This document shows, one piece after another, positions 22,259 to 26,479 of a DNA stretch of 42,556 nt. The DNA is taken from the NCBI GenBank assembly GCA_937922655.1, contig CALAJH010000019.1:1-42556 (forward strand), given 5' to 3'. The notes beneath the pieces are model-generated. The model had not been told where the DNA came from and searched no databases. It saw only the letters and a program-made list of their open reading frames with translations. This DNA is from an uncultured Bacteroidia bacterium. GTDB lineage: Bacteria > Bacteroidota > Bacteroidia > J057 > CALAJH01. A program made the position numbers and the translations under genes. The stretch's first letter is position 1; each line of letters starts with the position of its first letter.

Positions 22259-22576
22259 CGCTCAAAATTAACAAGGCTTTTCGAGTTCAACAAAATTTGT
22301 AGAAAAGTCGTGCCGACAAACGTCCAACATTCAACCGATTGGCGCACAAGCCGAACGAAATACACCGCATTCCCCAAGCCCGACAAACATTTCAATCTTC
22401 GTACATTCACAACCACACATTTTCTTCGTATGCCGGCGGCCAAACCCAACCTACGGATTGCGCTTATTCGGGAGAATTTGCAACGACTACAATTCTACAT
22501 CGGCAAGATTCGTACGCGATAAAGGGATTGAGCGTCGATTATTTTTTATCGATTGGATTGCATTTACGGCATTGAC

Positions 22577-22639
22577 AAAAAAAACGGAAAAAGGCTTTCC
22601 CGCCCGACCGTCGTTGGACGAACGGCAAGGCGGGAAAGC
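22577..22639 (-). terminator. Rho-independent terminator immediately downstream of rpoB
   Basis: 11-bp stem gctttcccgcc / ggcgggaaagc. On the minus strand it is followed by tttttccgtttttttt (plus-strand 22577..22594). Confidence 0.5.
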
Positions 22640-22675
22640 GGCAAATAAAAAGCCTAAAAGTACAGAAACGTACAA

Positions 22676-25600
22676 CTAATCCAACGTTACCTCGAGCGCC
22701 AAACCGCGAAGTTCGTGCAAAAGGACGTTGAAAGATTCGGGAATGCCGGGCGTGGGGAGGTTTTCGCCTTTGACGATAGCCTCGTAAGACTTTGCCCGCC
22801 CGACGACGTCGTCGGACTTGACGGTAAGCAGTTCGCGCAGGATGTGGGCGGCGCCGAAGGCTTCAAGGGCCCACACTTCCATTTCGCCGAAACGCTGACC
22901 CCCAAACTGAGCTTTGCCGCCCAAAGGCTGTTGGGTAATGAGCGAATAGGGACCGATGGAACGGGCGTGCATTTTGTCGTCGACCATGTGGCTGAGCTTG
23001 AGCATGTAAATCACGCCGACGGTGGTCGGTTGGTGGAAGGGTTCGCCGGAAAGCCCGTCGTAAAGGCGTGTGCGTCCGTATTCGGGCAAACCCGCCAAAC
23101 GAATTTGTTCGTTGACCTCTTCGGCCGAAGCGCCGTCGAAAATGGGGGTGGCGAATTTGACGCCCAACTTTTTACCCGCCCAACCGAGTATCGTTTCGTA
23201 GATTTGCCCAAGATTCATGCGCGAAGGCACCCCCAACGGATTGAGAACGATATCGACAGGGGTGCCGTCGGCCAAAAAGGGCATGTCCTCCACGCGCACA
23301 ATCCGCGAGACAATGCCTTTGTTGCCGTGGCGGCCGGCCATTTTGTCTCCGACTTTGAGCTTGCGCTTGTTGGCCACATAGACCTTCGCCAATTTCAAGA
23401 TGCCGGTTTGCAGTTCGTCGCCGACCGACGTTTGGTACTTCAAGCGCTTGTAATAACCGTCGATTTGATTGAAGCGGTTTTTGTAATTGACGAAAAGACG
23501 ATTGACGAGGTCGTTGACGTGAAAATCGTTGGTCCACGCTTCGGTAAGCAAGTCGTTATAGACGAGGTTGGGATAGTCGCCGGAGAACGGCCGGCCTTCG
23601 GGAATAACGAGGACACCGTATTTGTTGCGCACTCCGGTCGGCATTTTGTGGCCCGCCAGTATTTTTTCCAACTTTTGGGTCATTTGCCGGTCGAGTTCGC
23701 GGATTTTGGCCTTGTGTTCGTCTTCGAGCTCTTGCAAGCGTTTTTTGTCGTTGTTGCGCGAACGGGTGTCCTTGCGCTCTTTACTGAAAAGTTTTTTGTC
23801 GATAACGACGCCGTAAAAAGAGGGCGGCGCTTTGAGGGAGGCGTCTTTGACGTCGCCCGCACGGTCTCCAAAAATGGCACGCAACAATTTTTCCTCCGGG
23901 GTGGGGTCGGTCTCGCCTTTGGGGGTAATCTTACCGATAAGTATGTCCTGTTCTTTGACTTCGGCGCCGATGCGAATAAGGCCGTTGTCGTCGAGGTTGC
24001 GGGTGGCGTCTTCGGAAACGTTGGGAATTTCGTTGGTCAGCTCTTCTTGGCCAAGTTTGGTGTCCCGGACTTGGAGCTCGAACTCTTCGATGTGGATGGA
24101 GGTGAAATAATCGTCGGCGACGACACGCTCGGAAATGACGATGGCGTCCTCAAAATTGTATCCTTGCCACGGCATAAATGCAACCAAAAGATTGCGTCCG
24201 AGGGCGAGTTCGCCGTTTTGGGTCGAATAACCTTCGACCAAGATGTCGCCTTTTTTGACCTTTTGGCCCTTGCGAACGATGGGTTTGAGGTTGATGCAGG
24301 TGCTTTGATTGGTACGACGAAACTTGGGCAATTCGTAGGTTTTCAATGAACCTTCAAAACTCACCCAATCTTCTTCGTCGTCGCGGTAGTATTTGACGGT
24401 AATGTGTGCGGCGTCGACGGATGCGATTTCGCCCTCGCCTTCGGCGATGATGAGGGTACGGGAGTCCGCGGCGGCTTTAAGTTCGAGTCCCGTGCCGACG
24501 ATTGGGGCCTCGGGGCGCAAAAGCGGCACGGCCTGACGCTGCATGTTCGAGCCCATAAGGGCGCGGTTGGCGTCGTCGTGTTCGAGGAAGGGGATGAGCG
24601 AGGCGGCCAAAGAAACGATTTGGTTGGGCGCGACGTCCATATAATCGAGTTCGTCGGGCTCGCTGACGGGAAAGTCGCCCAGATTTCGGGCTTTGAGCCG
24701 TTCGACGGTAAAGCGTCCGTCGATGTCGTACTTACCCGTGGCTTGGGCGATGGTTTTGCCATCTTCCTCTTCGGCCGTAAGGTAGACCATTTTCGAGGTG
24801 TCAAGGCGGCCTTTGAAAACCCGATAATACGGCGTTTCAATGAAGCCCATAGAATTGACTTTGGCGTAAATACAAAGCGAGGAAATCAAACCGATGTTGG
24901 GGCCTTCGGGGGTCTCGATGGGACAGAGACGTCCGTAATGAGAATAGTGGACGTCGCGAACCTCAAAGCCCGCGTGTTCACGCGACAAACCGCCGGGGCC
25001 CAACGCCGAAATCCGACGCTTATGGGTGATTTCGCTCAACGGGTTGGTCTGGTCCAAAAATTGGCTCAGCTGGCTGGTACCGAAAAACGAATTGATGACG
25101 CTGGAAAGCGTACGGGCGTTGATGAGGTCGATGGGTTTGAAATCTTCGTTGTCGCGAATGTTCATACGTTCGCGAATCGTACGCGCCATGCGCGACAAGC
25201 CCACGGAAAACTGCGCGGCCAACTGCTCACCCACCGTCCGCACCCTACGGTTGCTTAGGTGGTCGATGTCGTCGACGTTGGCCTTGCTGTTCAAGAGCTC
25301 GATTAAGTATTTGACGATGCAAATGATGTCGTGCTTGGTAAGCACCTGACTGCGTTCGTCTTGGTTGTGGTGAAGTTTTTTATTGAGTCGAAAACGCCCC
25401 ACCTCGCCCAAATCGTAACGTTTGTCGCTAAAAAACAGCTTGTCGATAATGCCTTTGGCGGTTTCTTCGTCGGGCGCGTCGGCGTTGCGAAGTTGGCGGT
25501 ATATCATATTCACCGCCTCGGATTCGGAGTTGGAGTTGTCCTTTTGGAGGGTGTTGATAATGATGGCGTATTCGGGGACGTGGGGTTTGTCCGCCAAAAC

Positions 25601-26479
25601 GATGATGGACTTTTCACCCGAATCGAGAATGAGGTCGATGTCGGCGGCGCTGATTTCTTTGTCACGCTCAAGAATAACCTCGGTACGGGTAATGCTCATC
25701 ACCTCGCCCGTTTCCTCGTCGACAAAGTCCTGAATGTGATACTTAATGACGCGTGCGGCGAGCCGCTTTCCGACGGCTTTTTGCAGGTCTTCGCGGGTGT
25801 TTTTTATTTCTTCGGAAAGGTCGAAAATTTCGAGAATATCCTTGTCCGAGGAAAAACCGATGGCCCTCAACAACGTGGTGATAGGGAACTTTTTTTTCCC
25901 GTCGATGTAAGCGTACATGACGTGGCTGATGTCGGTGGAAAATTCAATCCACGACCCTTTAAACGGAATAATGCGGGCGGAATAAAGCCGGGTGCCGTTG
26001 GGGTGAACGCTTTGGCCAAAAAACACGCCGGGCGAGCGATGCAACTGACTGACAATGACCCGCTCGGCGCCATTGACGATGAACGTTCCCGCATCGGTCA
26101 TATAAGGGATGTTGCCCAAATAGACCTCCTGAGTGGTGGCTTCGAAGTCGTTGTCTTCGTCCTTGCAGGTCAAATGGAGTTTGGCTTTGAGAGCGACGGC
26201 GTAGGTAAGCCCTCGCTCTTTGCACTCTTCTATGGTGTATCGCGGCGGCTCGAGCGAATATTCGTTGAATTCAAGCACGAAATTGTCCCTTGCGTCCGAG
26301 ACGGGGAAGTTTTCAAGAAAGACCTTGTAAAGGCCCTCGTTTTTTCTTTTGTCCGGAGGCGTGTCCAATTGTACAAATTCGCGATAAGAGCTGATTTGCA
26401 CCTCCAGAAGGTCGGGAATTTCGGTCGTTGCCGAAATTTTCCCGAATGATTTACGGGTGTTGTGATAGATGTTGGCCAA
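22676..26479 (-). CDS. rpoB: DNA-directed RNA polymerase subunit beta
   Basis: 1267 aa with unmistakable RpoB blocks throughout ([27 protein letters not shown]...). Complete C-terminus ...[12 protein letters not shown]. Confidence 0.97.

Follow-up and report, generated by a model that had tools for sequence, protein, structure and literature searches.

Probable natural separation of rpoB and rpoC in uncultured Bacteroidia of a genus-level clade

The rpoB and rpoC genes, which encode the large beta and beta-prime subunits of RNA polymerase, form one of the most conserved adjacencies in bacterial genomes, and the usual explanation is that the two proteins are co-expressed and co-assembled. In contig CALAJH010000019.1 of an uncultured Bacteroidia bacterium (assembly GCA_937922655.1), rpoB is followed not by rpoC but by a terminator-like hairpin and the gene glyA. 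Has rpoC left the operon in this organism, or does the contig join sequences that do not belong together? The window, by which we mean the whole stretch analysed, is the entire 42,556-bp contig as found in NCBI and ENA, and rpoB lies about 16 kb from one of its ends and 22.7 kb from the other. We conclude that linkage of the two genes has very probably been lost naturally in this bacterium and its closest relatives, an uncultured clade of Bacteroidia at the genus level. The ancestral tuf-secE-nusG-rplKAJL-rpoB-rpoC array has lost rpoC from its 3' end, and a full-length rpoC occupies a second locus with the order giant type IX secretion system (T9SS) adhesin, rpoC, DUF2520 gene, GT4 glycosyltransferase, which is conserved in the two congeners where it can be read.

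The 3' flank of rpoB in three related species

The rpoB gene (22676..26479, minus strand) encodes a complete beta subunit of 1267 amino acids from a TTG start, with six RNA_pol_Rpb2 Pfam domains (1, 2, 3, 45, 6, and 7) in a single unbroken frame spanning residues 24-1266 (domain 6, E = 1e-131). The protein is the same as database protein P0244 except that the first codon is read as Met in one and Leu in the other, and its stop codon falls at the normal C-terminus (...LALEVTLD*), as in relatives. A terminator and then glyA occupy the same-strand position expected for rpoC, and a tblastn search with the rpoC of a relative found neither the gene nor a fragment or remnant of it in the 42.5-kb contig (best E = 3). 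Between rpoB and glyA lies a spacer of exactly 417 bp (22259-22675), with no Pfam-matching open reading frame and no Rfam match. A preliminary description of this DNA, made from the sequence alone, had reported a complete rpoB ending at 22676, a 417-bp non-coding spacer with a strong stem and U-run and no rpoC-like frame, and glyA beyond it on the same strand, and all of this is borne out here.

The spacer contains an intrinsic-terminator-like element (22576..22639, minus strand; inverted repeat I9) that consists of a GC-rich hairpin (22639-22594) starting 36 nt past the rpoB stop codon and, immediately after it, the U-run CUUUUUCCGUUUUUUUU (22593-22577). The hairpin is 46 nt long and paired over most of its length, and the 121-nt stretch that contains it folds to -41.2 kcal/mol, compared with -26.2 +/- 3.2 for shuffled sequences (z = -4.7), none of the 200 shuffles being as stable. 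We infer that this predicted terminator ends the rplKAJL-rpoB transcript just past the rpoB stop codon. At the other end of the spacer, a sequence that agrees at every position with the consensus Bacteroidetes sigma-A-type promoter, TTTG-N20-TAATTTTG (22263..22294, minus strand), finishes 4 nt before the ATG of glyA (20984..22258, minus strand; serine hydroxymethyltransferase, 424 amino acids; Pfam SHMT, E = 4e-167). The pattern searched for was TTTG and TAnnTTTG (the -33 and -7 elements) separated by 19-21 nt upstream of a gene, which we take to be the consensus of the B. fragilis promoter literature. It has four exact matches in the window where 0.47 would be expected, a number reached in none of 100 shuffles. 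The other three lie near the left end of the contig, at 1118-1149 (minus strand), 1337-1367 (plus strand), and 1432-1462 (minus strand), and one of them immediately precedes tRNA-Pro (1108-1033), a position that speaks for the motif as a functional promoter type in this genome. glyA would then be a separate transcription unit transcribed from its own predicted promoter and, because the -7 element ends so close to the ATG, its mRNA may have little or no leader. The remainder of the spacer (22295..22575, minus strand) holds no recognisable element: there is no Rfam match, no rpoC remnant, no repeat or mobile-element trace, and neither the rest of the window nor any compared locus resembles it. 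A riboswitch of the ZTP, tetrahydrofolate, or glycine type upstream of glyA was considered and rejected, since Rfam returned nothing for the spacer.

Two Logan contigs, from runs ERR9287890 and ERR9287621, match window positions 10984-23338 (99.99% identity) and 18003-23338 (100%). Both cross 663 nt of the rpoB 3' end, the spacer, and glyA, whose exact protein they encode, and continue beyond it. The two (L081 and L082) come from different sequencing runs and stop at the identical base within rpoB, window position 23338, which is likely a branch in the assembly graph caused by a related strain or species with conserved rpoB sequence.

The rpoB locus can also be compared with those of two congeners. 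Among the best 120 of 8000 scored matches, only two rpoB proteins exceed 79% identity to that of the window: P0001 (98%), whose cluster also includes the window's own rpoB and one partial rpoB, and P0002 (95%). P0001 is encoded on L083, a 132-kb contig of ENA assembly ERZ4756921, and P0002 on L084, from JGI metagenome 3300043543. On L083 the same tuf-to-rpoB array is followed, 198 bp on, by a convergent gene for a 252-amino-acid protein and then by GT87, LpxB, and other genes; on L084, rpoB is followed by a convergent ThiC gene. No rpoC fragment was found in either contig. The nucleotide similarity of the window to L083 (88%) and to L084 (83%) ends in both cases at the rpoB stop codon (22676 in the window, 13804 in L083, 4737 in L084), while upstream of that point the window and L083 share at least 13 kb of conserved sequence, and the L084 contig reaches only rplJ. 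Comparison with the nearest relatives, which the preliminary description had proposed as a check, therefore finds an rpoB without rpoC in both and a glyA neighbour in the window's species only. Synteny that stops at the rpoB stop codon points to repeated rearrangement of this flank and, because three species have three different neighbours, the flank would have been rearranged again after the unlinking. A strong hairpin directly follows rpoB in all three species, those of the congeners being comparable to that of the window. Shared ancestry of the window and L083 terminators was considered on the strength of a common 5' arm (TTTCCC..CCTTGCC), but 19 of 500 shuffles score equally and we do not rely on it. 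A partial rpoB of 369 amino acids on a 3.7-kb NCBI contig (P0243, MDW8333779.1) is 93-94% identical over the rpoB C-terminus; it is possibly a fourth member of the clade, and the approximately 2.6 kb outside the fragment may hold a fourth downstream neighbour.

A second locus for rpoC and the alternatives to unlinking

Where, then, is rpoC? We searched the protein database with the rpoC of a relative that has the canonical gene order (L085). For each match, the profile of its identities to the rpoCs from 40 genomes was set against that of the window's rpoB to the rpoBs of the same genomes. The closest candidates that appeared unpaired, P0126-P0128, were rejected when rpoB was found upstream of all three. 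The profile comparison picked out two proteins, P0139 and P0140, that are 90.5% identical to each other. P0139 (1443 amino acids) comes from JGI 3300043543, the metagenome of the 95% rpoB relative, and is encoded on a 14-kb contig (L091) with the order PKD/CHU_C protein, 145-nt spacer, rpoC, a DUF2520 gene 4 bp later, and a GT4 glycosyltransferase. A protein of the same 90% cluster, P0242, belongs to the assembly that contains the 98% relative, ENA ERZ4756921, and is encoded on contig NODE_3082 (locus L092), with a coverage of 6.5 compared with 5.9 on that assembly's rpoB contig; here the order is a 4586-amino-acid SprB/PKD/CHU_C adhesin, rpoC, DUF2520, and GT4. The two loci are collinear across 12.6 kb at 75-79% nucleotide identity, and in neither is there an rpoB or rpoB remnant upstream of rpoC.

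P0140 and P0241 are 99.9% identical (one difference in the 1416 residues of P0140), lie on contigs of 15.8 and 192 kb, and have NCBI and ENA as their sources, as do the window proteins. Their identities to the congener rpoCs (95.2% and 90.6%) follow the same rank order as those of the window rpoB to the congener rpoBs (97.8% and 94.8%). Because of the shared sources and the matching rank order, we presume that they are the rpoC of the window's species, located on other contigs. Rpb1 domains 1-5 are recorded for P0139, P0140, and P0242, and the catalytic NADFDGD motif is present in the three proteins checked for it (P0139, P0241, and P0242), so that a full-length rpoC is documented in congener and presumed-species proteins rather than in the window's own sequence. 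The clade's rpoC is a single protein of 1442-1443 amino acids, neither fused to rpoB nor divided into rpoC1 and rpoC2. The divergence ratios give no signal of a changed evolutionary rate of rpoC after the unlinking: the rpoC/rpoB ratio is 1.5-2.2 within the clade and 1.3-2.2 in three comparably close pairs in which the genes are linked.

These two sets of loci bear on the other ways in which the window could be explained. Had the assembly joined unrelated contigs in or near the spacer, rpoC would in truth follow rpoB, an alternative that the preliminary description had left standing; the window does come from a metagenome-assembled genome, and the common end of both Logan contigs at 23338 implies that the assembly graph branches nearby. 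Yet the junction recurs in two Logan assemblies, 99.99-100% identical to the window, rpoC is likewise missing after rpoB in two congeners assembled by other projects, and the rpoC of these congeners sits at another locus with no rpoB before it. For these reasons taken together, we discard an assembly join as extremely improbable, and the evidence from related species is stronger here than that from the Logan assemblies. We give equally little credence to the possibility that the window's rpoB is an extra paralogue in a genome that also has a canonical rpoB-rpoC pair at another place. It was considered solely because some other bacteria carry rpoB paralogues, and nothing found here supports it: the window's rpoB occupies the canonical tuf-secE-nusG-rplKAJL context, the only matches above 79% among the best 120 of 8000 scored are the proteins of the two congeners, and no rpoB or rpoB fragment precedes rpoC at the clade's rpoC loci.

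Somewhat greater, though still small, is the chance that rpoB and rpoC remain in one neighbourhood, perhaps even loosely co-oriented, and have been split by a large insertion. The available contigs do not fix the distance between the two genes, and the ENA congener has a very large gene (4586 amino acids) before rpoC, of the sort typical of variable cell-surface loci. An insertion of this kind is hard to reconcile with the 22.7 kb without rpoC downstream of the window's rpoB, with the terminator that follows rpoB in every case, or with the convergent housekeeping genes, rather than an island, that come right after rpoB in the congeners (LpxB, purB-like, and ThiC); moreover, the window and the rpoC loci share no gene beyond weak similarity among PKD/CHU_C domains. 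A different possibility concerns glyA rather than rpoC. The gene lies on the same strand as rpoB and just 417 bp away, and partial terminators are known inside the E. coli version of the operon, so glyA could have become part of the rpoB transcription unit, with the hairpin serving as an attenuator and glyA expressed mostly by read-through. The 46-nt hairpin and U-run between the genes, the perfect consensus promoter directly before glyA, and the absence of the rpoB-glyA adjacency from both congeners, which marks it as recent rather than conserved, make us regard this arrangement, too, as very unlikely.

Natural unlinking of rpoB and rpoC is thus the explanation that we favour, as the preliminary description had suggested it might be, and it accords with both the rpoC-less rpoB loci of the congeners and their separate rpoC locus. 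Several points nevertheless weigh against it or against parts of it. The context of rpoC in the window's own genome is extrapolated from two congeners, and the distance between rpoB and rpoC has only a lower bound, about 16 kb in one direction from rpoB and 22.7 kb in the opposite direction. The window may have been assembled from the very reads of the Logan runs, in which case these provide an independent assembly rather than independent data. Some read-through past the predicted terminator into glyA is possible. Finally, transcription of rpoC should now be independent of rpoB, either from a candidate promoter in the upstream spacer of about 145 nt or by read-through from the adhesin gene. 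Of the expectation in the preliminary description that rpoC would lie elsewhere with its own promoter, the location is borne out. The spacer between the adhesin gene and rpoC, however, contains no consensus Bacteroidetes promoter in either congener; the best candidates there carry two mismatches and are not shared by L091 and L092. Past the adhesin stop codon, roughly the first 100 nt are variable and form hairpins, and these hairpins are not followed by U-runs.

By comparison, the final 55 nt or so before the rpoC ATG are AT-rich and near-identical in both congeners. This block holds a 9+9 palindrome, GCAAAATTT-N6-AAATTTTGC (L091 2284-2307; L092 approximately 9880-9903), that has no counterpart in the rpoB-rpoC spacers of relatives with the canonical order, and a metagenome scan for the conserved leader motif returned one unrelated AT-rich match (L093). 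With co-transcription gone, the stoichiometry of beta and beta-prime would no longer be fixed by a common mRNA. A speculative extension, which we consider doubtful, is that beta-prime has come under new control, the 55-nt block being a regulatory element (an operator or a structure in the 5' untranslated region) that rebalances it with beta, and that the rpoB 3' flank, bounded by the terminator, is a recurrent rearrangement breakpoint.

Large PKD/CHU_C proteins, of the kind secreted by the T9SS, are found near the rpoB and rpoC loci alike, in the window at 5761-9519 (minus strand) and 11702-15775 (plus strand), in L084 at 6814-9750, in L091 at 24-2180, and in L092 at 1-9773, and the window also encodes a PorU-like C25 peptidase. 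The similarity that links these proteins is at the level of domains only.

The upstream array and other genes of the window

The tRNA genes, the tuf array, rpoB, the terminator, and glyA are all on the minus strand of the window. Upstream of tuf is a cluster of tRNA-Thr(tgt), tRNA-Tyr, tRNA-Gly, and tRNA-Thr(ggt) (31010..31425; ARAGORN and Rfam). It is followed by tuf itself (29736..30923; EF-Tu, 395 amino acids; Pfam GTP_EFTU, D2, and D3), with a one-mismatch Bacteroidetes promoter motif ending 17 nt upstream of its start, and by tRNA-Trp (29643..29718; ARAGORN). Next comes secE (29400..29597), identified from its translation of about 65 amino acids, with an inferred start, and from its L083 ortholog, which is called SecE (PF00584). 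Pfam matches identify nusG (28797..29387; NusG and KOW), rplK (28330..28776; L11), rplA (27561..28265; L1), rplJ (27033..27560; L10), and rplL (26609..26992; L7/L12), the last four lying directly 5' of rpoB on the same strand. The intergenic region between rplL and rpoB (26480..26608) contains two hairpins, with eight consecutive U after the second, and the interval 26620-26470 folds to -51.4 kcal/mol (z = -3.8). By analogy with the rplL-rpoB attenuator of E. coli, these hairpins may act as an attenuator. No promoter motif is present in the 250 nt searched upstream of rpoB and, for this reason and because of the attenuator-like spacer, rpoB is probably still co-transcribed with rplJL.

The other large open reading frames of the window encode, according to Pfam, the PorU-like C25 peptidase, a PKD/CHU_C protein that is cargo of type IX secretion, a hybrid histidine kinase, and a protein resembling the major vault protein. 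This last protein (15925-18339, plus strand; 804 amino acids) has a major vault protein shoulder domain (E = 1e-28) and one Vault_3 repeat, making it a homologue, in a bacterium, of the eukaryote-type vault protein. Its gene is followed on the same strand by genes for a short-chain dehydrogenase, a SpoIIM-like membrane protein, and a VWA protein, and the gene and these neighbours are also present on Logan contig L081.

Polarity, frequency, and meaning of the split

Relatives with rpoBs 77-79% identical to that of the window (L085/L086, L087, and L089/L090) have rpoB directly before rpoC, as does L088, in which rpoC directly follows a 132-amino-acid rpoB fragment that is 89% identical, and several further relatives are implied to be canonical by contigs that match between the rpoB and rpoC match lists. 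Because these sister lineages keep the pair, the split is derived in the genus-level clade. L085/L086 ("Bacteroidia bacterium" GCA_964440845.1 and GCA_033763015.1) and L089/L090 resemble the window in rpoB length (1267 amino acids) and in the order of genes from tuf to rpoB, and differ in retaining rpoC 56-145 bp after rpoB, in spacers without the palindromic block.

For the phylum as a whole, we sampled 80 Bacteroidota rpoB loci from GTDB species representatives whose rpoB is at most 70% identical to that of the window, a sample drawn from outside the window's genome and its congeners, and 77 of 80 had enough downstream sequence to judge. rpoC lies 34-741 nt past rpoB in 74 of these 77 informative loci, in agreement with the adjacency that the preliminary description took as the norm. 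The other three, each a single-assembly locus in a metagenome-assembled genome (MAG), have a complete rpoB with unrelated genes, most of them convergent, and no rpoC remnant after it: L022 (Cytophagales MAG JBBQXF01), L048 (Bacteroidota MAG JBPOJO01), and L068 (Puia sp. MAG DASZYU01). In L022 (13868-23861) rpoB is next to an EamA transporter and a SpoU methylase, in L048 (8100-9767) to a convergent 501-amino-acid protein, and in L068 (6754-16750) to an M43 peptidase with a T9SS tail and threonine synthase. Since their rpoBs are only 67-68% identical to that of the window, these splits are probably separate events from the one in the window's clade, and L022 and L048, whose rpoBs are 79% identical to each other, may share one event. 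The earlier statement that separation is rare therefore stands, although it is not unique to this clade: in Bacteroidota the two genes are seldom apart (about 4% of loci), yet their separation has recurred.

The window shares with the canonical rplKAJL-rpoBC (beta) operon, as found in E. coli and in the 74 Bacteroidota loci, the one-strand array of tuf, tRNA-Trp, secE, nusG, rplK, rplA, rplJ, rplL, and rpoB, as well as a structured rplL-rpoB spacer with a hairpin and U-run and no promoter motif directly before rpoB. It departs from that operon, along with its clade, in having no rpoC at the 3' end, a strong terminator past rpoB, and an rpoC placed behind a T9SS adhesin gene. Other departures from the two-gene standard are known that likewise involve no loss of the enzyme, namely the rpoB-rpoC fusion of Helicobacter and Wolbachia and the division of rpoC into rpoC1 and rpoC2 in cyanobacteria and plastids; unlike these, the genes of the window's clade are standard in length and domains, and linkage alone has been lost. 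A search of the available literature for bacterial unlinking of rpoB and rpoC found no report, the matches being mostly to chloroplast rearrangements. The cluster holding rpoBC can be altered in other ways, for example, in Haemophilus influenzae Rd KW20, where rplJL has been relocated out of the rpoBC operon (Brandis 2021, PMC8046335). Both are cases in a narrow lineage in which essential genes of a highly conserved operon have moved; in H. influenzae, however, these are ribosomal protein genes, whereas in the window's clade it is the gene for beta-prime, which unlinks the two largest subunits of a single enzyme.

The clade described here is an organisational variant of a well-known operon rather than a new kind of system. 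It indicates that complete unlinking is tolerated in a free-living clade, with rpoC placed behind a cell-surface adhesin gene, and, together with the three other split loci, that rpoB-rpoC adjacency is strongly preferred and not obligatory, so that neither judgements of assembly quality nor the anchoring of synteny should rely on it. This may come as a mild surprise to specialists. The clade could be of modest use as a natural case of uncoupled beta and beta-prime genes, in which to ask how the stoichiometry of the two subunits is held without co-transcription.

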